Notes: generated by a model not told the origin, from the sequence alone. Shown: positions 2,446 to 63,209, counted from the stretch's first letter. The stretch: 64,000 bases of DNA from a virus (IMGVR_UViG_2660238201_000001:3579-67578), one strand, 5' to 3'. Numbers and translations are program-made.

Positions 2446-2625
2446 TTCAAAACCATTCCTGCAAGGTCTAAGAGATTTTATGAAACATTACCATCTTTTT
2501 TGTACTGAATAGGAGCGCTCTTTTTGGCAACTCAAAATCAGCTATCAGTCGGTCTGAATATCCGCTCTTCGCTCAAAGCGGACATTTCAACTTTGCTGTT
2601 GCACATAGTCTGTCCCAAGCAGTGA

Positions 2626-2898
2626 CTACGTTAAATTGAAGTCATCGAAATCGACGAACTCCATGTGTCTGGCTTCCACCTTTGCAAGAGTGAGCAGAAA
2701 CAACATCCCCTCTCTTAGAGAAGTTGGTTCTTCGAGCAGGAACTCAAAACCGTCCACATGTGTCTTGCCCAACCAATAGCCGCCACCATACTGTCTCTCT
2801 CGCTGGAAAAAGACGCACTGGCCAGGTTTGAAATGTTTAAGTGTCTCGCCTCTGTAGACGATCTGATAACTGGTGTCTTTTCCGCCCATTTTGATCAC
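2626..2898 (-). CDS. hypothetical protein (90 aa)
   Basis: ORF preceded at 2960-3010 by a hairpin plus a class-2 motif. Confidence 0.4.
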   Translation of the reverse strand: MIKMGGKDTSYQIVYRGETLKHFKPGQCVFFQRERQYGGGYWLGKTHVDGFEFLLEEPTSLREGMLFLLTLAKVEARHMEFVDFDDFNLT

Positions 2899-3019
2899 CC
2901 CAAATACTGTACATTTAAACAGTAGTTCTTTGATGAAATGCGGTCAAGTTTGACGGTGGTGGTAATAACTTATTGGTGAAAACAAATTATTTAAGGCCAT
3001 AATAATGGCCTTATCACTG

Positions 3020-3277
3020 TTAACCTTTCAAGAAAACAGCTGCCGATGGATACTCATAAAGTACTCGTGTGAGCTCCCCTTTGGATTTTGCATTCTCGAA
3101 GGCTTTCTCAGAGCATTGCACCCAAGTATTGCCGCCGACATTGACTTCGATGATCTTACCAGGCACGTTGTCCATTGCGGCCAACAATACAGTGGCCATT
3201 CGATGTGCGAGGTGGCTCTTTCCGTATGTGGTAATCACTTCGTTAAGCTCATTTCTGGTTATGGTTGATTTGGTCAT
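3020..3277 (-). CDS. hypothetical protein (85 aa)
   Basis: Its start overlaps the stop of the upstream gene by 4 nt, giving an operon-like arrangement. Confidence 0.35.
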   Translation of the reverse strand: MTKSTITRNELNEVITTYGKSHLAHRMATVLLAAMDNVPGKIIEVNVGGNTWVQCSEKAFENAKSKGELTRVLYEYPSAAVFLKG

Positions 3278-3651
3278 ACATCCCCCTCAACGACTGTGAT
3301 GCCCAGTGACTCCAGAAGAGAGATAACCTGGCGCTTTGAGTATGCCGGATAGCTGTGGTCAGCGTAAGTACACGATGGTAGCGGAAGCTTCACGGTGCCG
3401 CCCCCCAGCTCGGCGATGCGATTAGCCTGCCAGTCAACGAATTCTACAAGTCCGACACCTTTTTCTCGCAAACCGTAGTCATCCCTAAGCATGTCGTATA
3501 CATCTGATTTGGTCTTCGCCTTCTCCAGCGCCTCTACCAGAGTGATGATGTCACGAGTCTGGACAAGCATATTTGGGTGGAAATTATCTGCGGCATTCTT
3601 TGCTGCCGCGCGCATACGCAGCGCAAGTTCGTTGATATTCATGCTACGCAC
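3274..3651 (-). CDS. hypothetical protein (125 aa)
   Basis: ORF in a tight minus-strand array. Confidence 0.4.
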   Translation of the reverse strand: MRSMNINELALRMRAAAKNAADNFHPNMLVQTRDIITLVEALEKAKTKSDVYDMLRDDYGLREKGVGLVEFVDWQANRIAELGGGTVKLPLPSCTYADHSYPAYSKRQVISLLESLGITVVEGDV

Positions 3652-4196
3652 CCCATTTCCATCAACCCTGTACGAACGGCATTCAGGATGCGATCGAGGT
3701 ATTGATAATTCGGGTTAGGCACAGAAGGCCATCGTGCGTAACATGGGTCGTCGCCAAAAAGCTCCAAAAGCTCATTACCAATGCCGTAGTCGCAGCAACA
3801 TGCCTTAACGTCATCAGCATTTTCGGCTTCATTCCACATTTCGCGAGCTTTCTCAGCATCAAGTTCCCGTTCGCGACGAAGCTTAATGATATGTGCCTTA
3901 ACGAACGCTAGATTTGCTTCGTTATCGTCGTCAACCGAGCTTTCAAGTTGAGGATCTAAGCAACCAATCAGATAGTCATTGCTAACGCGCTTAATAAAGG
4001 CCTGAACAGAATCACCACCCATGGCGAACCAGGCAGCTGTCCATGCCTTGCCGAAGCAGGTGATTGTGATACGGCCCTTTCCGGGCTCGTAGTTTTCAAT
4101 CATCACCCTGATTGGGTCGAGGCGATCGACGTCGGTAATAGTGAAAGCCATAACGTCCATTCGTTCTACTTTCATGCGCTCTCCCATGCGCCCCAA
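3639..4196 (-). CDS. hypothetical protein (185 aa)
   Basis: ORF translationally coupled to the neighbouring genes. Confidence 0.4.
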   Translation of the reverse strand: MGRMGERMKVERMDVMAFTITDVDRLDPIRVMIENYEPGKGRITITCFGKAWTAAWFAMGGDSVQAFIKRVSNDYLIGCLDPQLESSVDDDNEANLAFVKAHIIKLRRERELDAEKAREMWNEAENADDVKACCCDYGIGNELLELFGDDPCYARWPSVPNPNYQYLDRILNAVRTGLMEMGCVA

Positions 4197-4825
4197 ATCA
4201 GCGCCTTGTGCTTTTCAAAACGTTTCATGTGTACTGGCTGAAGACTGGCTATACCTTCCACTACCACATCACGAGCTTTAATCAGTAATGCATGCTCGAT
4301 ACCTTTTTTCTCCAGAAGGTCAACGACACGCTCGTCGGCGCCAATTTCCTTATTCTCAAATAGGACCTTGAGCATTAACTCTTTTTCAGCGAGATAGATA
4401 GCCGAAAACTCAGGATCGCGGTCGACGATAGACGACGTGTTATCCAGCAGATCAGCCAGCTTTATCATGCGTGTCTGCATATCAAGGCTTTGTGACAGCT
4501 CCAGAACGTTAATAACGAAACGTTGCACCCGATTTCCGTCTTCTGGTTTGGCTATATTGGTGAGGGCCAGCACCATTTCAGCGACACGCTCACCGAAGTG
4601 TTCCCGAACCATCTCAATGGTTACATGGGTATCTTCCACTACGTCATGCAGTAATGCTGCAATCTGCATCTCAACAGTACCGCCATACCAGGCAACTATT
4701 GATCGGACTGAGTCTGGATGGTGGATGTAATCCTCACCTGTATATTTCCGTTTCTGACCAACACCGCCATGAGCGCCGGCAGCAAACATGAAAGCTTTAG
4801 ATACACTCGACATTCTTATCTCCAT
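4172..4825 (-). CDS. HD-domain (p)ppGpp pyrophosphohydrolase, SpoT/Mesh1-like
   Basis: The motifs HHPDSVRS, VAWYGG and LLHDVVEDT match the RelA/SpoT HD hydrolase signature (H..HD..ED). Confidence 0.6.
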   Translation of the reverse strand: MEIRMSSVSKAFMFAAGAHGGVGQKRKYTGEDYIHHPDSVRSIVAWYGGTVEMQIAALLHDVVEDTHVTIEMVREHFGERVAEMVLALTNIAKPEDGNRVQRFVINVLELSQSLDMQTRMIKLADLLDNTSSIVDRDPEFSAIYLAEKELMLKVLFENKEIGADERVVDLLEKKGIEHALLIKARDVVVEGIASLQPVHMKRFEKHKALIWGAWESA

Positions 4826-7532: not shown

Positions 7533-8111
7533 TCAGTGGCTGACTTGCTGCATCTTGTGCGGCTGGTCATTTAGATCGTGGCGATGGGCAAGTTCTCGCA
7601 TCATGTCTTCGATACGGCTCTTCGCTTCATCCATATTATCCGCCATCGCACCAAGCAGCTGGCGAATAGCAGCGGGATGTTCATCGCCGGTTAGCTCTGG
7701 CATTTTGAACCCGTTATGGGTTGCCATTAGTTTAAAGGCGGTAATTAACATGCCTAAAGAAGACTTAAGGCTGGCGATCTCCCGCTCTTTGCTTTCAATG
7801 CCGATATTGTCTCCGGAGAGATCTGGCGCCGGCGCGCATTTTGGTTCGCTCATCATGTCCAGAGTTGCCTGCAGTTTATTGGCACGTTCATGCTCTTCCA
7901 CATACGCCCCGCCAAAGTGACGAGCAAGCATCAGGATTTTCATTGGTTCGTCAAATAAGTCCATGACCTGGACGATGGCCATGATGCGTTCCAGCGGATG
8001 AGCGTCACCATGACCAGTTATAGAATCAAGCATCCCTACGAGTTTTTTAGCCCCGACTTCATTAATGATCTTCTTTACTTCAGCGTTAGCGGCGGTGCAT
8101 TTATCACACAT
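7533..8111 (-). CDS. hypothetical protein (192 aa)
   Basis: ORF with a class-2 motif upstream at 8128-8170. Confidence 0.45.
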   Translation of the reverse strand: MCDKCTAANAEVKKIINEVGAKKLVGMLDSITGHGDAHPLERIMAIVQVMDLFDEPMKILMLARHFGGAYVEEHERANKLQATLDMMSEPKCAPAPDLSGDNIGIESKEREIASLKSSLGMLITAFKLMATHNGFKMPELTGDEHPAAIRQLLGAMADNMDEAKSRIEDMMRELAHRHDLNDQPHKMQQVSH

Positions 8112-8393
8112 GTGTTTTTCCTTACTTGTTAAAATAATTTGTTTTCTTGGTGGCTTTATTCTGACAATTCAGAAGAGGGGGGCAAACGCGTCATAACGGT
8201 TAAACCAGAAGAATCGAGGGCCAGGTGGCCCTCGGCGATCACTTCGATTTTTTAAGTAGAGGTTGGGCAAAGTAGGTAGCCAATCCAACCAACACGCCAT
8301 CTGCCGCGATAGACATCAGTTTGCCAGTGAAGTCCACCAGCACGACCAGCACGAGAAGAATGGCGACGACGGCCAGCCTTAATTTCTCTGCCA

Positions 8394-8852
8394 TTAGATG
8401 TACGCATCCAGAGATAACTGCAGCGCCTGAGCAATTTTCTTCAGCACAACCTCTTCTTCTTCGCCGATGCCATCCTGATCGGCAATATCCAGGCAGAGAC
8501 ACAACACATCAACGGCTTCTGGAGTGCCGGCGACATCAGCCAGCTCCCGAAGAGCCTGTGCGTTGGCGGAACGAGGAGAAGCTTCATAGCGAGCACGAAT
8601 ATTGCTGCTCATCTGGGCGATCTCACCCGCGAACGGTGAGAAAGCTGGCAATGCGGAGATGGTCTTCTCCAGAATAGCGATTTCTTTTGCATCACAGTTG
8701 CCGTCTGCATAAGCGATCATGTATGCGCCCCAGACAGTAGCTTCGACCGCATCGCGGTTCTCCATTTTTTTAACTTCAATAACCGCTTTACGAGTTTTCT
8801 TTTTGAAGAAACCTAACATGTGTTTTTCCCTATATGTTATGTGCTTAAACAA
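8394..8852 (-). CDS. TerB-like (tellurite-resistance TerB fold) protein
   Basis: The pattern DGNCDAKEIAILEKTISA ... VDVLCLCLDIADQDG resembles the TerB family. This is a weak family-level call. Confidence 0.4.
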   Translation of the reverse strand: MFKHITYREKHMLGFFKKKTRKAVIEVKKMENRDAVEATVWGAYMIAYADGNCDAKEIAILEKTISALPAFSPFAGEIAQMSSNIRARYEASPRSANAQALRELADVAGTPEAVDVLCLCLDIADQDGIGEEEEVVLKKIAQALQLSLDAYI

Positions 8853-9119
8853 ATTGTTTTCGTATAGAAATAAACATTAAGGCAGCAAAGAGAGCCTCCA
8901 AGGCTTCAACCCCTACGCCCATTAACAGAACCCGAGAACAGAGCCGATCGGTGGGACAAAAATCCCCACAACACGAGCGATCGTCATACCTGAGTGAAGA
9001 AATAAATCACCGTGTAGTGCCAGCTTAACGATGTTTGAGATCCAGCCACCCACCGCCAAAAGCAGAATGGCTATCCAAATGAATGACCAGTTTTTGAGTA
9101 AGAAGATCACGCCATCACC

Positions 9120-52863: not shown

Positions 52864-52943
52864 GTGAGTAACCAGACGAACTATACCTAAAAGTTAACAC
52901 AAAAGTAAGTAAGTAGTTACATAACGACAAGGGCGTTTATGCA

Positions 52944-53121: not shown

Positions 53122-53208
53122 TGGCGGAGGATAATGGAATCGAACCATCATCGCTTTCGCAATGGGACGGTTTTCAAGACCGCTTGGGCGCCATGCCCTC
53201 TATCCTCC
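53122..53208 (-). tRNA. tRNA-Ser (anticodon TGA), type II long variable arm
   Basis: Manual fold: acceptor GGAGGAT/ATCCTCC, anticodon stem GCGGT/ACCGT with loop CTTGAAA, T-arm GGTTCGATTCC and an encoded CCA. Confidence 0.7.
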
Positions 53209-53356: not shown

Positions 53357-53431
53357 TGGCGATGGTGGGTGGATTCGAACCACCGACCAGTTGATTAACA
53401 GTCAACCGCTCTACCACTGAGCTACACCATC
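53357..53431 (-). tRNA. tRNA-Asn (anticodon GTT)
   Basis: Manual fold: acceptor GATGGTG/CACCATC, D-arm TAGCTCAGTGGTAGAGCG, anticodon stem-loop GTTGA-CTGTTAA-TCAAC, T-arm GGTTCGAATCC and CCA. Confidence 0.8.
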
Positions 53432-54174
53432 TAAAGTTGACACCGTCAGCCTCTGTCGATTTACGGACTTGTGGGGCCGCATCGCCGATTCACCGGTGTC
53501 GTTCGCAGCAGTCCTACCGCTTTCTGCCACCGTATTCACCAAACGCTTACAAGCCAAGATCTTCAAATACTCTCCGAGGGTTGAGGAGGGCTTTCTTTCA
53601 GATCTAATTGGATGTATGGAATCATTTAATCGTTGTGGCCACGGGGCAGTGACAACAATGGCTATAACCAGAAGGATAATGAATCCGTGGCCACAACGTT
53701 GAGACCACTGGGACGGATTAATGTACTTGGCCCTACATGTCTGCCGGTTCTGCCTCTGTGATGCAAAAACCAGTGGTCTCAACGTTGCGTGCTGGCTCAC
53801 CTAACCAGCCGGGTTACGTCGCCATTTTTAACCCAAAACTAAACGACATAAGTAACAGAAATGACGTAACAGGATAGACGGTCGGGCCTTTGGGAGCCGG
53901 GATGTGTTGGACATAAAACCCAACCGCCCATTCTGTTACCTCATCGGTAAGGGCACTGGTTAACCAGATGCCCTACCTGCGTTTTGCAATCACACTCGCT
54001 TAGTGTGTCCCATTTCGGTGACGAGGCTGGAAACTGACCTCGCTGGTGTTTGGCTTTTTAGGCTACTGCCAGATACTGATTGTCGTTTGCAGTTATCTTT
54101 AAACGTTCAAACAGTCGCGTCTCAACGAAAACAAGCCAATCATAGTTGTATCAAAATAATAAGTAAATACTTAC

Positions 54175-55338: not shown

Positions 55339-55417
55339 TTCTCTAAACGATAATCTTGTACTTACTTACTAATCAGTTTAAATAACTCTGTACGGGGACA
55401 CAGTACATAGTCACGGC

Positions 55418-56233
55418 TTACCAGGTGGCCCAGCCGGTCATCTTGTCACTTGCGGCTTCGTATCGATATGGGGTTAGCAGGTCGTTTGCGGCATGAACGG
55501 CGTGGGATTTGGCTTCCTGAATCAGCATAGGCATTTCATTGGCCAAACGACTGATCTTACTTGCGTATTGTGCCAACACCCCATCACAGACGCGGCCAGC
55601 CTCAACGATCACGTTGATTAAGTCCAGATCACTACGACACAAGTCGCAGATACGCCCATAGTCCAGCTCACGAACACGCGCTATAGCCTTGTTGTAATCT
55701 CCGGAGACAATCATTTCCAACAAGCCTGGTGGTGCTACCAGATCTACATGGCGCCTTTCAACATCGGGAGAAGTCATGACGCTGACGAAAGCCTCTCCTA
55801 CTGTCTCGCATTTGCTTTCTACGGCTCTTAGAGTCACGTCCACGCTCTTCTCAAGCGTTTCTCTGCTTTCCATCTGGTAGCAGTTTGAGAAGATGATTTT
55901 GTCGTCATACCAGGCGCCAAAACGCGCAACTGGCCCAATGCCGGTCTCAAGCGACGGGACGATGAACGCAACCAGAGCTACACGCTTTTGAACAGTACCG
56001 GGCATTTCAGGCGTCTTTGCGTACCACACTAACACCGACGTATGTGTCGCCCCTTCTTTGAGAGGAATGCAGGATAGCGCATTCGATATATGCTCTGATG
56101 CCGTGTTGAATGAGGCATCGATGATGCTCTCCAGTTCTCCCTCGCCAAGCTCTACGCCTGACTTCTTGATCATCTCTAAAACTGCCTGTTCGATATCTTC
56201 TTTCATGTGATGTCCTCCACAACCAGAGAGCAA
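55418..56233 (-). CDS. hypothetical protein (271 aa)
   Basis: ORF with a palindromic motif upstream at 56243-56266. Confidence 0.45.
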   Translation of the reverse strand: MLSGCGGHHMKEDIEQAVLEMIKKSGVELGEGELESIIDASFNTASEHISNALSCIPLKEGATHTSVLVWYAKTPEMPGTVQKRVALVAFIVPSLETGIGPVARFGAWYDDKIIFSNCYQMESRETLEKSVDVTLRAVESKCETVGEAFVSVMTSPDVERRHVDLVAPPGLLEMIVSGDYNKAIARVRELDYGRICDLCRSDLDLINVIVEAGRVCDGVLAQYASKISRLANEMPMLIQEAKSHAVHAANDLLTPYRYEAASDKMTGWATW

Positions 56234-56453
56234 ATTATTACATTAAAATATGTAAGTAGCTACTTATCAAAGAGAGGCGGAGAGGTATACGATGGCAACA
56301 GACCAACACAACAATGCATAGGCCCCAAGAGCGTTTGACTCGGAACGTAGCAACTATGAAGACTTAACCTTACTAAAGCTGTTCGTACTCTGTTAATATA
56401 TTGAAGCAAAAAACAAAGGTTATGCAATTTCCTTTTCAGCAAAGAATCTAACT

Positions 56454-57665
56454 TTGCAGAAAACAAATAATAACACGTATTGTTTAATAGGGGATTTTAT
56501 GAAATTTTTTGATGAGTCTTATGAACATGAAGTTAATTCCATCACGAGTCATATAACTAGTACTTTCCCCTTGTCAAATGATTTATCTAATAATCCGTTT
56601 GCTGCCGACGATTCAATTTTGTCTGATGTAATTATTTCACTGTCATGGCGCTATTTTATAGACTTGTATTTTAAGCATAGAGATTTACTCAACGAACACA
56701 CACCATTTAATCAAGAAAAGATAGAGGGTGGTAATCTCCCTAGCTTATCAGAATTAAAAAGTGATAAACATTTCTTTTTATTTAAAATACTCAGATTAAT
56801 ATATGAATACAATTTTTGGACAGTGAGCGACACAAGACAACCACTTTTTTTAGATTTTTCCATTTTAGAAAGATTAGATAGACTGTCCCCAAAGGATAAC
56901 ATTCCAATTTCGTTCACCTGGATAGAACAAACAATGCCTGCAGCATTGGTTAAACACTTATTGCGGTCAGATAAATTTTCTCTTTTTAAAAACATTGCAA
57001 CTAATGTAGGTGGCTTTGAGGAAGAAATTTCGAAGCAAATAAAAAATGGTATCAGCACGGCGCAAAATGAGGCAGAACAGTTAAAAGAAAAAATTGAGAC
57101 TCTCGTTAACAATGCCGATTCGTCCATAAAGTCTCTTCAAGAATATGATGAAAAACTCAAACAGTATAAAAGTGAATATAACTTCGTTCTGCTGAGCAAA
57201 GCTTTCTCAAATCTTTTGAAAACCAAAAAAGCAGAATATGTCACAAATCACAGAAGTGTAATTATTTTTTCTTCATGGTTGATTGCCACGCCTTTATTTG
57301 CTTTATTGAATCATATCTATAATTTCTTCCCCGTGGAATTTAATTTAAATGCATTATTCTATTTCCTGCCGATATTATCATTAGAATTGTTATTTTTTTA
57401 TTTTATGCGTCTATATTATATTGAGGGCAAGGCCATCAAGGCTCAGATACTTCAAATAGAACAGCGACTAAGTCTATGTGAGTTTATACATGACTACGTG
57501 GAGACCAAAAATAACTCCGGTGCTGAAAAGGAATCATGGTCGCTGTTTGAGAAGTTAATTTTCAGCCCAATACAGGTTACTTCTGAAAACATACCGTCTT
57601 TACTGGATGGCGCATCATCTATTGCAGAGTTAGCTGGGAAAGTATTGTCCAAAGATTCTAAATAA
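56454..57665 (+). CDS. AT-rich foreign gene: soluble N-domain + C-terminal multi-TM anchor (probable true start MKFF at 56499)
   Basis: Its GC content is far below the neighbours. It is on the plus strand against minus-strand polarity. Hydrophobic helices WLIATPLFALL and FYFLPILSLELLFFYF are present. Confidence 0.5.
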   Translation: MQKTNNNTYCLIGDFMKFFDESYEHEVNSITSHITSTFPLSNDLSNNPFAADDSILSDVIISLSWRYFIDLYFKHRDLLNEHTPFNQEKIEGGNLPSLSELKSDKHFFLFKILRLIYEYNFWTVSDTRQPLFLDFSILERLDRLSPKDNIPISFTWIEQTMPAALVKHLLRSDKFSLFKNIATNVGGFEEEISKQIKNGISTAQNEAEQLKEKIETLVNNADSSIKSLQEYDEKLKQYKSEYNFVLLSKAFSNLLKTKKAEYVTNHRSVIIFSSWLIATPLFALLNHIYNFFPVEFNLNALFYFLPILSLELLFFYFMRLYYIEGKAIKAQILQIEQRLSLCEFIHDYVETKNNSGAEKESWSLFEKLIFSPIQVTSENIPSLLDGASSIAELAGKVLSKDSK

Positions 57666-57704
57666 CCATGTTGGCTGCCCTCTTTTGGCAGCCAACCAAA
57701 CACC

Positions 57705-58829
57705 TCACGAATTAAACACTTTTATACCGAGAACCTTGCTCTGCAGCTCCAGCTGCTTAGAGTAGGGTTTTGCGCGATAGTAGGCTTTGAGAATTTGTTC
57801 CTGGGTTGCTTCCCCGGGATCTAGCCCTTCTTCTCCAAGACAGGATATTTTTACATTTAACCCTATACTGGTTAATCGTCTGGCGGCCGCCATTGTGTTG
57901 CGGATCGCTTGCTTCTCGCTATCCCACATCATGATGACGTTTCGCAGACCATCAGCCTTTAACGACAGAAATGCGCCCAGTTGGTCTTCTGCGTCTACAG
58001 TCGTGTTTCCGGACAGATGCATCCCGAACGTGCCAATGGGCTCTACGTAGTCCCGGAGCGTCTCTTCGTCGAATATGGCGCGCTTAACCCCCATGACATC
58101 GAAAGCCCCCTCACAGACGACGACTGTTTGCTTTCCAACTGCGTTATGTCCGTTATAGAGAAACCTCCCGGATGCCGGCAGCTGCATTGGAAAGAGATAT
58201 CGGCGTTCTGCTGCGCCGGTGACGTCACGCCCCTGGAATGTCTTCATCACCCCATTCAGATCGTAAATCGGTATCAGGATGCGCATATCGAATGCCTGCC
58301 CTTTAACCTGATCGGTATATGGGTCGACATAAGCATGTTTTCCCTCGACGCAGTAACGCAGGTCAAAATATTTGGCCAGCTCCGGGGTAATGTTCCGCTC
58401 AACAAGATAGTCCGGCAGCCGACCGTCAATTGGCAGTTCATAATGCCGCGGTAAAGCCACCGGGCCTTCAAGTTCCACAGCACTGGCCAGCACAACCTCT
58501 TCTTTTTTTGGCGCCCAACCTTGAGACAGGAGTGCGTTATGTACGTACTCCTCAAAGGCACGACGAGACTTACCGCTGTAGTGTTTGAGGAAAACCAGCT
58601 TATTAAATTGAATTTCTTCTGGGTGATCGCCGGCGAAGCATTTCCCGACGTTGTTGGTCAGGTTGAAATAGACCTTCCAGTTTGTGCTTCCACATACCGG
58701 ACATTCTTTGATATTCACTTCGCGGCCGCGGGCGCTTACACCGCCGCGACGATAGATGATGCCTTCCATATCCAGCCATTGTTCGAAATCCAGCTCGGAC
58801 AGTAACTCTTTGAGGTCACTCATTGTCAT
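57705..58829 (-). CDS. DNA primase (zinc-ribbon + TOPRIM)
   Basis: CPVCGS...C..H zinc ribbon and TOPRIM motif VVCEGAFDVMG with downstream acidic residues. Confidence 0.75.
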   Translation of the reverse strand: MTMSDLKELLSELDFEQWLDMEGIIYRRGGVSARGREVNIKECPVCGSTNWKVYFNLTNNVGKCFAGDHPEEIQFNKLVFLKHYSGKSRRAFEEYVHNALLSQGWAPKKEEVVLASAVELEGPVALPRHYELPIDGRLPDYLVERNITPELAKYFDLRYCVEGKHAYVDPYTDQVKGQAFDMRILIPIYDLNGVMKTFQGRDVTGAAERRYLFPMQLPASGRFLYNGHNAVGKQTVVVCEGAFDVMGVKRAIFDEETLRDYVEPIGTFGMHLSGNTTVDAEDQLGAFLSLKADGLRNVIMMWDSEKQAIRNTMAAARRLTSIGLNVKISCLGEEGLDPGEATQEQILKAYYRAKPYSKQLELQSKVLGIKVFNS

Positions 58830-58975
58830 TCACCGCAGTTTTTAAAAGGCAATATCTTGATAAGCCTCGGTTTTTGAATACCATAGAGGCTCATGTGTTT
58901 TTCCTTTTGTGATTAAACAAAAGGTAATTTGGAAGGGCGTGGGGCTGTTATCCGTCTTTGCCCCACGCCTATTTT

Positions 58976-60316
58976 TTAAAGAACTTCCATGATCCGCTCG
59001 ATGAAGCGCATCTGTTCGAGGTTCTGCTTAACGCGAATACTCACCCCGCCCTTCTGGTTACGAGAACCAGCAAAATAGAGACGTGCTTCGCCTTTGGCTT
59101 CTTCCTCCTCAGTCTTGTTGATAGTGATGACTAAGTCGGCAATACGGACTTTTTCGATATTGTCCGCGGCGTGCATCATGGTGGCCACTTCGGATGAACC
59201 ACCTTCACGGTTGGTCTGGGATGCCGTGATTCCTGCAACGTTGTGCTTATCGTAGAGAGCACGCAGATCGGTGTAGATAGAGCGGATGTTCGCCCGGTCG
59301 TCACGGAGGTCGTAACTGGCTCGCATCAAGTCCGCATAGTCGACCACCACCATATCCGGGATCATGCCATTCGCTTTCATGCTATTGAGCATACGATCCA
59401 AATCTGCAGGCGACATGCTTCCTGACGGGCGCTCAACCACCCAGAGATTCCCCACCCCTTTCGTCGCGCCAAGCTCCGCGAGTTTCCGGTGAACGTCGTC
59501 ACGCTGCTCTACCAGCTTTGACATCTCCGTTTCAGACAGCCGCGCATCGAAGCGATCGGAGAGAATCGAGGTATGCACTTCGAGAGAAAGATACAAAACG
59601 TTGTAGCCGGCCAGCGTTGCGTTAATGGAGAACTCCCCCATCGCTGTCGATTTACCTGATTTCGCAAAACCCATGAAGAGCACCATCTCACGTTTCGCCC
59701 ACCCTTTTTGATAGAGCATACGATCCAGCAGCGGCAGGCCAGTGGTGATGCTGTTCGGCACGTAATCATCTGAGGCCTCATATTCACGAGCCTTGTAACG
59801 TTCCGCTGCAGAGGCGAAATAGTCATAAATGCCCGTCGCTTCGTTAGAACCGATCTGCTGCACTTTGGCCATGATGGCCATCGCTCCCTGGAAGTCGCCC
59901 TTCTCCTTCATCTCGGCCGCTTTAATCAACGCATCGTCGAACGCTACACTTTTAGCGAACGTCGCGACCTGGTCGACCATGTAAGCCGTATCAGAGAGTT
60001 TTTCCGAGAGCACCCGCTTAAACGCCGCCACAACGTCCGGGAACATCTCTTCTCTGATCGTCTTATCGCGTTTAGCACGCTTCAACATATCTAGGATGGC
60101 CGCCGATGAAGGCGCGCTCTTATACATTCTGAAATAGCCCGATACCATGTTCACCAGTATGGCGTTCGCCGCATTGGAGAATTGGTTGGGGGCAACCAGA
60201 TCGCCGGCACGAGTCAGAAACTCATGATCGCGGCAAAAATACGCCGCCAGACGATTCTGGAAGTCATCGTCGAACTCTTCAGACAACCCTCGTCCCGTGT
60301 GGCAAAGTTCGGTCAT
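58976..60316 (-). CDS. replicative DNA helicase (DnaB family)
   Basis: Walker A GFAKSGKST, H2 VVDYADLM and a DnaB-like N-terminal domain. It is adjacent to the primase. Confidence 0.75.
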   Translation of the reverse strand: MTELCHTGRGLSEEFDDDFQNRLAAYFCRDHEFLTRAGDLVAPNQFSNAANAILVNMVSGYFRMYKSAPSSAAILDMLKRAKRDKTIREEMFPDVVAAFKRVLSEKLSDTAYMVDQVATFAKSVAFDDALIKAAEMKEKGDFQGAMAIMAKVQQIGSNEATGIYDYFASAAERYKAREYEASDDYVPNSITTGLPLLDRMLYQKGWAKREMVLFMGFAKSGKSTAMGEFSINATLAGYNVLYLSLEVHTSILSDRFDARLSETEMSKLVEQRDDVHRKLAELGATKGVGNLWVVERPSGSMSPADLDRMLNSMKANGMIPDMVVVDYADLMRASYDLRDDRANIRSIYTDLRALYDKHNVAGITASQTNREGGSSEVATMMHAADNIEKVRIADLVITINKTEEEEAKGEARLYFAGSRNQKGGVSIRVKQNLEQMRFIERIMEVL

Positions 60317-61106: not shown

Positions 61107-61350
61107 GCTCTCACCGATAGGTAACTACTTACTTACTATTTAACAGATCATAGCGACTGGAGACTGTTTTTGGAAGTAGAAGCAGAAGGGAATGTGTCTG
61201 GGAAGAATGCAAAATACCTACTTACGTATAAATAATAAGTTACTTAGTTTTATATACGAAAGCAGGTTCTGAACTTATAACCAATTAGTTTCTAAGAAAT
61301 GCTATAATGCAAAAAGTGTTAACTGTATCTAAACCTCAACATAAGGCGCC

Positions 61351-62136
61351 ATGATGCTATTATATAAATACATACCAGAAGAAAGTCTAAAACTATTTTT
61401 TGATCATGACGCAATCAGCTTTAAATTTACGCCAGTTGGTCATTTCAATGACCCTTTCGAAACATATGGGGTATCGTTGGCATCAGAGGATGTAGACTCG
61501 TTAATGCATTTGACCTTGCGCTCAAAAATAAACTCTGAACTTGCCAGTCTATGTTTATCCGAATCGCCATTAGAAGTTTTAATGTGGTCTCACTACGCAC
61601 AACATCATAGAGGTTACGTAGTAGGCATAGATGCAGATTTAGCAGGTTTTAACGATGACTCTCTTTGTTTAATAACAGCTAATGAGGGAAATATCGACTA
61701 CCGAGAGGAGAGAGAGAAAGCAAGAATCATTGTTTCAGAAAAAGATTTTAAAAACAAAGAGATAATCAAAAAAATATTGTTACGAAAAAGCCTGCACTGG
61801 AAATATGAGAAAGAAGTTAGAGTTGTAATAGAAAGTAAAAAACTGCTCCCCATAGAGAATGAAGAAGAGAAGTTCTATTTATACAAGGCTCCAGGGATTA
61901 ATAGCATTAAAGAGATTTATATCGGCATTAATAATGAGGAGTATGAATTTACCGTTACAGAGAATGAAAATTTAAGAAATGCCATATTGGAAAATAATAT
62001 AAAAATTCAAAAGTGCAATTTCAAAAAGGGAACTTGGGACTTAGATTCGATGGACTACGACATGAAGGATATTACAAACATTGAGTTCAATATACTTGCG
62101 GGGGTAATATCTGCTTTTGAAAAAAATGAAGTATAA
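61351..62136 (+). CDS. AT-rich foreign gene, DUF2971-like protein
   Basis: LYKYIP...FKFTPVGHFNDPFE matches the N-terminal signature I recall for DUF2971. The gene is low in GC, on the plus strand and has its own hairpin terminator at 62140-62170. Confidence 0.45.
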   Translation: MMLLYKYIPEESLKLFFDHDAISFKFTPVGHFNDPFETYGVSLASEDVDSLMHLTLRSKINSELASLCLSESPLEVLMWSHYAQHHRGYVVGIDADLAGFNDDSLCLITANEGNIDYREEREKARIIVSEKDFKNKEIIKKILLRKSLHWKYEKEVRVVIESKKLLPIENEEEKFYLYKAPGINSIKEIYIGINNEEYEFTVTENENLRNAILENNIKIQKCNFKKGTWDLDSMDYDMKDITNIEFNILAGVISAFEKNEV

Positions 62137-62181: not shown

Positions 62182-62544
62182 TTAGCCTTTCTTCATCAAC
62201 TCGCGCTTTATTTCGTCAGTACGCATCGTCACATCGGCAGCAGTGATCGCCTCGTTCATCTTGACGATGTCCTCAATCTCTTGCGGGGACTTCTCTGCCA
62301 GATGGAAAATGGCTGCACGTATCACATCAGAACGGGTGAACTTCTCGAAGCGAGGGATGAACTTCATCATCTCCAGTAATTCGAAATACTCGTCTTCAAG
62401 AGACATCGTGCGGCTTTTGATTTTCTCTTTGCCACGTGTTGGACGGCCTTGTGGACGGACAGGCTGGCGCATCGGGGTGCTGCTTTTTGGCGCAGCAGCT
62501 TCTGCAGCCGGACGTTTTGCCAGATCACCCATTTTCATGGACAT
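62182..62544 (-). CDS. small partition partner protein (ParG/ribbon-helix-helix-like)
   Basis: 120-aa product overlapping parA by 1 nt, with a basic N-terminal tail and a C-terminal RHH-like segment SDVIRAAIFHLA. Confidence 0.45.
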   Translation of the reverse strand: MSMKMGDLAKRPAAEAAAPKSSTPMRQPVRPQGRPTRGKEKIKSRTMSLEDEYFELLEMMKFIPRFEKFTRSDVIRAAIFHLAEKSPQEIEDIVKMNEAITAADVTMRTDEIKRELMKKG

Positions 62545-63209
62545 TATTCACCCTCCAAGGTCATTACGTATTCTACTAATGCTTCAATCTCGGCCTCAGC
62601 CTTTTTGTCGCGTTCGGCTCCGGTCATCTCAAATATGGAACGACCCGCCTCTTCGGCATCGTCATAGACGTTGCGGTTGTAAAGATTCACCGGTACCGCC
62701 TCAATGCCAAAGGTTTCGACAATTTCTTTTGCAGCGATAATGCGCGCAGCTTGGGAAGGCAGAGACGGGCACTGGTTCATTACAGCACGGATTTTGATTT
62801 GGTCATTCACGCTGCTAACGCTGTCGACGATGGGGTCGATGTCACGCAAGGATTTCAGATCGCGGCGTTTCGGGCGAAGCGGGATAAGGATCACGTTGGC
62901 CATCAGCATAGCCTGGCGCTGAATTTCGGAGTCGAAACCACCAGCGTCAACGACGACGTAATCGAAACGGCCGCGAAGCGAAGTGATGTGTTTGATGATG
63001 TCATCCTGGACATAGGCGAACGGGATCAGCTCCAGTTCTTCATTGTGCCGGCGGTCTTCACACCATCCTGTCGTGGTGCGCTGGATGTCGATATCAGTGA
63101 TCTGTACTTTCTTTTTCTTTTTGATTTTCAGACAGGCTGCAATTTGCTGTGCAACAGTCGATTTGCCTGGGCCACCCTTGGTGCCGCCCACCACAATGAT
63201 CTGAGTCAT
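62544..63209 (-). CDS. parA: ParA/Soj-type partition ATPase (small type Ib)
   Basis: Deviant Walker A VVGGTKGGPGKSTVA at a ParA-Ib length of 221 aa. Confidence 0.8.
   Translation of the reverse strand: MTQIIVVGGTKGGPGKSTVAQQIAACLKIKKKKKVQITDIDIQRTTTGWCEDRRHNEELELIPFAYVQDDIIKHITSLRGRFDYVVVDAGGFDSEIQRQAMLMANVILIPLRPKRRDLKSLRDIDPIVDSVSSVNDQIKIRAVMNQCPSLPSQAARIIAAKEIVETFGIEAVPVNLYNRNVYDDAEEAGRSIFEMTGAERDKKAEAEIEALVEYVMTLEGE

Follow-up and report, generated by a model that had tools for sequence, protein, structure and literature searches.

Why does the replication region of a Klebsiella phage-plasmid carry one AT-rich gene that is read against its neighbours, and what might its product do? The gene lies in a 64,000-nucleotide stretch of viral DNA (IMGVR_UViG_2660238201_000001:3579-67578), the whole of which is called the window here, with positions counted from its first letter; its backbone is that of a Klebsiella SSU5-like phage-plasmid. 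We found that the gene is the single coding sequence (CDS) of a 1,440-bp cargo cassette (56267-57706), which consists of a leader, the CDS and a hairpin, and that its protein joins a hypervariable cytoplasmic domain to a constrained membrane module. This combination fits a sensor-effector immunity protein, and we tentatively regard the gene as a candidate for anti-phage exclusion.

An earlier note, made by a model from the sequence of the window, had picked out this gene by its composition and its orientation, and both observations stood. The guanine-plus-cytosine (GC) content is 0.30-0.35 over approximately 56200-57600, whereas it is about 0.50-0.53 on either side, and the open reading frame (ORF) ending at 57665 lies on the plus strand, surrounded by minus-strand genes. 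Its left neighbour is a 262-aa hypothetical backbone gene (55418-56206, minus); to the right lie a primase gene (57705-58829, minus), with which it forms a convergent pair, and a gene for a DnaB-like helicase (58976-60316, minus). The region 55400-58900 is 100% identical to the K. pneumoniae plasmid NZ_CP034047.1 (113 kb) and about 95% identical to SSU5-like Klebsiella phages and plasmids, including vB_Kpn_1825-KPC53 and pJN2-26. The cassette and its left boundary contain the following features.

56238-56266, minus strand: motif-1 backbone element (GTAAGTAG/CTACTTAC), upstream of the 262-aa gene; left boundary, outside the cassette
56267-57706, no strand assigned: cargo cassette; in BLAST against phage vB_KpnS_p4727 (L010), homology ends at 56266 and restarts at 57707
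56489-56494, plus strand: Shine-Dalgarno-like AGGGGA, 4 nt upstream of ATG 56499, read from the sequence
56499-57665, plus strand: CDS of 388 aa plus stop, PHROG 9373 (function unannotated), called from the PHROG match, homolog lengths and purifying selection in frame
57670-57696, no strand assigned: 10-bp GC-rich hairpin between the convergent cargo and primase genes, a terminator-like site

The slot that holds the cassette is polymorphic. In phage vB_KpnS_p4727 and several plasmids (H39-H45), 56267-57706 is replaced by 59 unrelated bp. Among approximately 306 PLSDB plasmids that share the backbone, as judged by the upstream backbone gene at a nucleotide identity of at least 95%, 225 Klebsiella plasmids (about 74%) carry the gene. 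The Enterobacter cloacae plasmid pAVS0889-a (L011) has an alternative cargo of about 2 kb in the slot (2450-4449), with two small minus-strand ORFs of 107 and 132 aa, for which no Pfam or PADLOC match was found. Homology of this plasmid to the window restarts at 57639, within the final 27 nt of the cargo gene, which points to a resident allele that had been replaced at an earlier time. Comparison of eight loci showed a mean pairwise nucleotide identity of 0.96-0.99 in the flanks versus 0.51-0.90 inside approximately 56240-57720, so that the cassette appears as an island of divergence with sharp edges on both sides. Cargo, as the gene had been called, is thus an apt description: the cassette is dispensable, compositionally foreign, of opposite strand and of one gene, it occupies a polymorphic slot, and its relatives sit in accessory slots, as described below.

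The product had been given as 403 aa, a length that did not hold. Counted from TTG 56454, the 403-aa ORF is merely the maximal mechanical one. The PHROG 9373 profile aligns over positions 1-388 of 388 with residues 16-401 of that ORF (E 2.9e-148, 495 bits), 114 of 120 listed homologs are full-length and every one of these is exactly 388 aa, and AGGGGA precedes ATG 56499; the most likely product is therefore the 388-aa protein encoded by 56499-57665, to which all residue numbers below refer. The cassette was read as a single gene because neither an Rfam family, nor a second conserved ORF, nor a conserved antisense ORF was found in it; a structured RNA and an antitoxin were likewise looked for in the cassette and not found, and the antisense 138-aa ORF at 56711-57127 was rejected as not conserved among alleles. 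The hairpin at 57670-57696, which has no clear T-run on the plus strand, is a possible bidirectional terminator.

The earlier note had also proposed that the motif-1 copy at the left edge drives the plus-strand gene, possibly as a divergent promoter. We rejected this idea, because the element belongs to the backbone and is retained at empty sites. Further copies related to the GTAAGTAG/CTACTTAC element lie immediately upstream of backbone genes, at 55341-55371, 61108-61138 and 52901-52926; the element thus recurs in front of minus-strand genes. Its likely role is that of a promoter or regulatory site common to the genes of the phage-plasmid's replication region.

To describe the protein, we combined hydropathy, charge counts and AlphaFold2 modelling with an alignment of 35 sequences. 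The model consists of a helical globular domain at residues 1-170, followed by a single helix of about 105 residues (170-274), which forms a coiled-coil stalk and runs unbroken into the first transmembrane (TM) segment; modelled separately, the N-terminal domain reached a pLDDT of 87 and a pTM of 0.84. Kyte-Doolittle analysis gave exactly two TM segments, TM1 at 252-273 and TM2 at 281-305, separated by a predicted periplasmic loop of about 8-12 residues, and TM2 extends as a cytoplasmic helix to about residue 336. Lysine and arginine together number four before TM1, none in the loop and three after TM2. Because of this distribution around the hairpin, and because sequence analysis found no signal peptide in the cargo protein, it should be an inner-membrane protein with both termini in the cytoplasm. 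Its parts map to the DNA as follows.

56499-57008, plus strand: residues 1-170, an all-alpha cytoplasmic domain at the N-terminus, hypervariable from allele to allele and proposed as specificity or sensor domain
57009-57251, plus strand: coiled-coil stalk, residues 171-251, within the AlphaFold2 helix 170-274; entropy peak at 161-200, dN 0.65
57252-57413, plus strand: TM hairpin, residues 252-305, from hydropathy, positive-inside counts and AlphaFold2 helices
57414-57662, plus strand: conserved cytoplasmic C-terminal tail of 83 aa, residues 306-388; proposed effector or regulatory core

This layout modifies what had been claimed. A helical N-terminal part followed by hydrophobic helices was found, and the peptide quoted for it (EAEQLKEKIE...) is present, but the TM helices are exactly two and not two to three. 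The supposed C-terminal membrane anchor has to be given up, as the TM helices are followed by the 83-aa cytoplasmic tail, the most conserved part of the protein. Structure prediction of the N-terminal domain, which the note had recommended, yielded a confident all-helical model but no structural relative.

Sequence comparison of the alleles showed where the protein varies. In a set of 114 full-length alleles, most of the variability falls within residues 1-215, with an entropy peak at 161-200 and a minimum at 300-380; residues 171-215 form the most variable stretch, and the segment 251-300, which includes TM1 and the loop, is moderately variable, with identity between alleles falling to 48%. 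Nei-Gojobori estimates of synonymous (dS) and nonsynonymous (dN) divergence for the eight loci were as follows.

Flanking genes (backbone): dS about 0.07-0.08, dN 0.003-0.016
Cargo residues 1-170: dS about 1.7 (saturated), dN 0.47
Cargo residues 171-215: dS about 1.6 (saturated), dN 0.65
Cargo residues 301-388: dS 0.64, dN 0.03, omega (dN/dS) 0.05

Because dS reaches about 1.7 in the cargo gene and about 0.07 in its flanks, the sequences indicate that the alleles are far older than the backbone that carries them and arrived by recombination rather than being made in place. The exchange can be seen within the gene: in one locus (L016), the N-terminal part is that of the window (dS 0), whereas the C-terminal part is that of another locus, L012 (dS 0.02, against 0.22 to the window). 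In-situ hypermutation of the kind produced by diversity-generating retroelements was rejected as the source of diversity, since synonymous sites are saturated too and whole segments have been exchanged. By the same estimates, the tail is under strong purifying selection, and it has an amino acid identity of at least 90% in 225 of the 225 gene-carrying Klebsiella plasmids.

The family reaches beyond Klebsiella. A profile search of 1.84 billion cluster representatives returned 761 clusters (counted at 50% identity) at E≤1e-3, and those listed are mostly 350-430 aa long; the named members come mainly from Gammaproteobacteria (Yersinia, Pantoea, Serratia, Vibrio, Aeromonas, Shewanella and Marinobacter), with others such as Geotalea. 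The family core is the C-terminal portion of about 190 residues, with YNFVGL..GF...L...K..E, a conserved proline in TM1, P..S......YYFR in TM2, and then QIELRK(T/S)LC.FIQ.Y, KFE.IIFS and LPSTFDG. In the cargo protein, the first of these motifs reads YNFV(L/G)L..(A/G)F at 227-236, in which N228, F229, L232 and F236 are invariant across the family, as are P291, S294 and Y301 of TM2. The tail carries QIExRLSLCEFIxxY, FExLIFSPI and IPSxxDG and has the family-invariant residues Q319, R323, L326, C327, F329, I330, Y333, F350, E351, F355, S356, P366, D370 and G371. Even in the N-terminal domain, R99, E103 and P147 are invariant across 35 sampled members.

We then asked in what surroundings the family lives. 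In IMG/VR, 130 contigs encode a relative, and the 79 loci that were fetched comprise 45 P2-like, 10 SSU5-like and 24 other loci. Forty P2-like loci contain both gpS and gpV; in 33 of these the relative occupies the interval between the two genes, and in 38 it is encoded on the opposite strand. The homologs of Yersinia phage vB_YenM_31.17 and of a Pantoea prophage show this position and orientation. The gpS/gpV interval is the P2 orf30 locus, which is the main viral home of the family (examples L002, L005 and L022) and one of three known loci of horizontal acquisition in P2-like phages (PMC3091744). Homology of the family to P2 Orf30 itself (NP_046770) was rejected, with an hhalign probability of 0.2% and E 0.37 for the family profile. 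Because Orf30 of P2 is predicted to be a membrane protein but is not related to the family, the orf30 slot is one that holds alternative membrane-protein cargo. In Vibrio cholerae (L003), the relative at 8001-9071 follows tnsE as the next called gene in a Tn7-like element (tnsABCDE), which shows that the gene also travels on transposons, and solo insertions among unrelated genes were found in Aeromonas, Shewanella, Geotalea, Catenovulum and Marinobacter. The GC content of the relative was below that of its flanks in 74 of 74 loci (median 0.35 versus 0.54).

No partner gene was conserved across the family loci. A 99-aa downstream gene in Aeromonas and Geotalea looked like a conserved partner and was dismissed, as the two proteins are unrelated, and an Enterobacter 217-aa 'short form', considered as a standalone C-terminal module, turned out to be a copy truncated by an insertion sequence (IS) beside a gpS remnant.

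Searches for characterised relatives gave little. With the window protein and 35 diverse members, Pfam, NCBIfam, PADLOC and PDB returned just coiled-coil noise (V-SNARE, ZorA tail, VbhT and Type I S subunit); in PADLOC-DB v2.0 this amounted to the Type I S subunit at E 6e-4 and to ZorA, LmuA and 4TM effector at E values of at least 0.004. Several members match DUF5677 (PF18928) over residues of about 68-185 against profile positions of about 11-133, in consistent register and with a best E of 5.4e-4, below the gathering score of 27.1 bits; the window protein itself gave no such match. In a preprint, the single DUF5677 ORF assayed gave no protection (bioRxiv 10.1101/2025.10.07.681051). The structural search found no relative of the cargo protein. 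The best BFVD matches of the full model were non-significant, namely A0A8S5TVZ3 (E 2e-3) and A0A142KAZ0 of Gordonia phage Lucky10 (E 5e-2), with a TM-score of about 0.3; these uncharacterised proteins of similar length may be, to judge from the models, analogous architectures in actinophages. Nothing was found in the literature on the family or on orf30-slot cargo as defence; in the P2 defence-hotspot literature that is searchable in text, the term orf30 is absent, and one preprint names old/tin, Z/fun and tail-cI instead.

How could such a protein work? As a self-contained, horizontally exchanged accessory cassette, or 'moron', the gene would protect the lysogen from other phages or mobile elements. 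The protein would be inserted in the inner membrane so that its two ends face the cytoplasm, as sequence analysis supports; its hypervariable N-terminal domain and the upper coiled coil would recognise a phage-derived cytoplasmic trigger, and the signal might be passed along the long helix that is continuous with TM1. The near-invariant TM2 and tail, probably oligomeric, would then compromise the integrity or energisation of the membrane, so that the infection is aborted or an early step is blocked. The many ancient alleles, shuffled by intragenic recombination, could give differing specificities to lineages of the same phage-plasmid.

We consider it rather probable that the protein serves some form of anti-phage exclusion or exclusion of mobile genetic elements, taking the sensor-effector and entry-exclusion readings together. 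Judged from context and evolution only, the narrower reading, a single-protein exclusion or abortive-infection (Abi) system in which a variable sensor is coupled to a conserved membrane effector, has in our view somewhat less than an even chance. This is close to the Abi or exclusion effector that the earlier note had suggested: context and allele evolution make the candidate stronger, but homology to a known defence, Abi or superinfection-exclusion (Sie) protein was not found by sequence or fold. That absence weighs against the sensor-effector reading, and so do several other points. Model confidence is low for the C-terminal tail (pLDDT 41-58), no convincing match to a sigma-70 promoter was found in the 232-bp leader of the cassette, and the sampled chromosomal copies are flanked by housekeeping genes and not by recognisable defence islands. 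In the variable part, dN/dS stays below 1 and dS is saturated, so that positive selection can be neither demonstrated nor dismissed, and the N-terminal part may owe its diversity to long-standing neutral divergence under loose constraint. If the protein instead acts in superinfection exclusion at the entry step, with the membrane hairpin hindering ejection or translocation of phage DNA and the cell not being killed, the same context evidence and the inner-membrane location would apply, and the moderate variability of TM1 and the loop would be expected from contact with a phage ejection protein. However, so short a periplasmic loop, the cytoplasmic location of the most variable parts (1-215), where the ejection apparatus is less accessible, and the lack of similarity to known Sie proteins make this unlikely.

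An equally unlikely account places the gene outside phage conflict, as a lysogenic-conversion or housekeeping membrane protein, for example a membrane-stress, envelope or signalling adaptor. It draws on the chromosomal copies of Aeromonas, Shewanella, Geotalea and Catenovulum, which are single genes set among metabolic ones, on the lack of a match to defence models, and on the unprotective ORF with the weakly similar DUF5677 domain (bioRxiv 10.1101/2025.10.07.681051). From a constant function, however, one would not expect a single domain to be extremely diverse and its ancient alleles to persist in a backbone that is 95% identical; the presence/absence polymorphism, the AT-richness in every host and the preference for phage accessory slots and Tn7 cargo also speak against it. 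We regard as improbable that the protein is a remote SLATT 2TM effector whose nucleotide-signalling partner was lost or is dispensable, so that it would form just the effector part of a system with its sensor elsewhere. The lead came from the UniRef cluster name of one homolog (P0150), 'SMODS and SLOG-associating 2TM effector domain...', and the gross architecture of two TM helices between cytoplasmic helices is shared, which is generic and not diagnostic. The name was not reproduced with any hidden Markov model (HMM): no SLATT model of Pfam or NCBIfam matched the window protein, none was among the matches listed at E≤0.1 for 35 members (Pfam, 25 of 35 families; NCBIfam, 25 of 31), none matched any of 10 members, P0150 among them, at E≤10, and the label was absent from 120 remote hits. 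Nor was a SMODS, SLOG, reverse transcriptase (RT) or TIR neighbour present in the window or in 11 loci with called-gene tables (L003-L008, L018-L022). Finally, the AT-rich foreign composition, the IS-disrupted 217-aa Enterobacter copy and the many partial database entries might be taken to indicate a selfish, addiction-type toxin or a decaying remnant without function; given the intact frame in 114 of 120 listed homologs, all of 388 aa, the tail omega of 0.05 at a dS of 0.64, and no antitoxin-like partner ORF or RNA, this is very improbable.

If the sensor-effector reading is right, the gene would be a prophage-encoded single-protein membrane exclusion or Abi system without a characterised relative. 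A wider proposal, possible but doubtful in our view, is that it is the founding example of a widespread single-protein immune-sensor family of temperate phages, phage-plasmids and transposons, with a swappable cytoplasmic head whose fold has no solved relative, joined by one unbroken helix to a new, near-invariant two-helix membrane effector, and with ancient alleles under balancing selection and intragenic shuffling, and that P2 orf30 is a third P2-like defence hotspot. If phages are indeed excluded, the defence family would be new to current catalogues, a role would be assigned to the P2 orf30 slot, and the natural swaps of specificity domains on a constant effector would be convenient for studying how membrane Abi is triggered. 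Clinical Klebsiella commonly carry SSU5-like phage-plasmids (the backbone is present in 306 PLSDB plasmids, about three quarters of them with the gene), and under phage exclusion the allele would determine phage susceptibility at the level of the strain, which bears on phage therapy and on competition among phage-plasmids. Should the gene prove to have no phenotype, a striking ancient allelic polymorphism in a mobile-element gene would still need explanation.

Other features were noted in the window apart from the cassette. Genes for tRNA-Ser(TGA) and tRNA-Asn(GTT) lie at 53122-53208 and 53357-53431, both on the minus strand, and tRNA-like inverted repeats occur near them at 53694-53787 and 53946-53977. 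A ParA/MipZ-type ATPase (62544-63209, minus; Pfam AAA_31, MipZ and CbiA) is presumably encoded by the partition gene of the phage-plasmid. A second AT-rich insert (GC about 0.33; 61351-62136, plus) is flanked by a 241-aa backbone gene on one side and by the ParA-like partition region on the other. Its 261-aa protein has matches in Pfam, to DUF2971 (E 1.5e-10), and in PADLOC, to PDC-S31 (E 1.8e-24), a candidate for single-gene defence.

Among known families and systems, PHROG 9373 is the only named family to which the cargo protein belongs, over its full length, and it is itself without functional annotation; the statement that no family could be named therefore holds for characterised families but not for this one. 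The PDC-S31/DUF2971 insert resembles the cargo gene in being AT-rich, of opposite strand and a single gene on the shared backbone, and by analogy it supports the reading as defence cargo; it differs in encoding an unrelated soluble protein, itself a computational candidate only. Another parallel is offered by the morons of P2-like phages (old, tin, fun(Z) and Orf30): relatives of the cargo protein lie in the orf30 locus itself, on the opposite strand, and are AT-rich. The old and tin genes exclude other phages according to the literature, and fun(Z) does so according to a sequence-record note. The window gene departs from these morons in its place in the replication module of an SSU5-like phage-plasmid. 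Orf30, too, is a nonessential predicted membrane protein, but it is not homologous, and the genomic slot alone is shared.

With the SLATT effectors of systems related to the cyclic oligonucleotide-based anti-phage signalling system (CBASS), of defence-associated reverse transcriptases (DRT) and of related systems, the cargo protein has in common two TM helices, cytoplasmic helical flanks and a predicted membrane-disrupting role, but its family is without an HMM match, always stands alone, and has a large N-terminal domain and a coiled coil of its own. T4 Imm, P22 SieA and SieB, lambda RexB and HK97 gp15 are small, dispensable, prophage-encoded proteins of the inner membrane that block other phages, and Imm, SieA and HK97 gp15 interfere there with the entry of incoming phage DNA. 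The cargo protein has no detected similarity to any of them, and it is set apart by a cytoplasmic sensor-like part of 250 residues and an unusually conserved tail.

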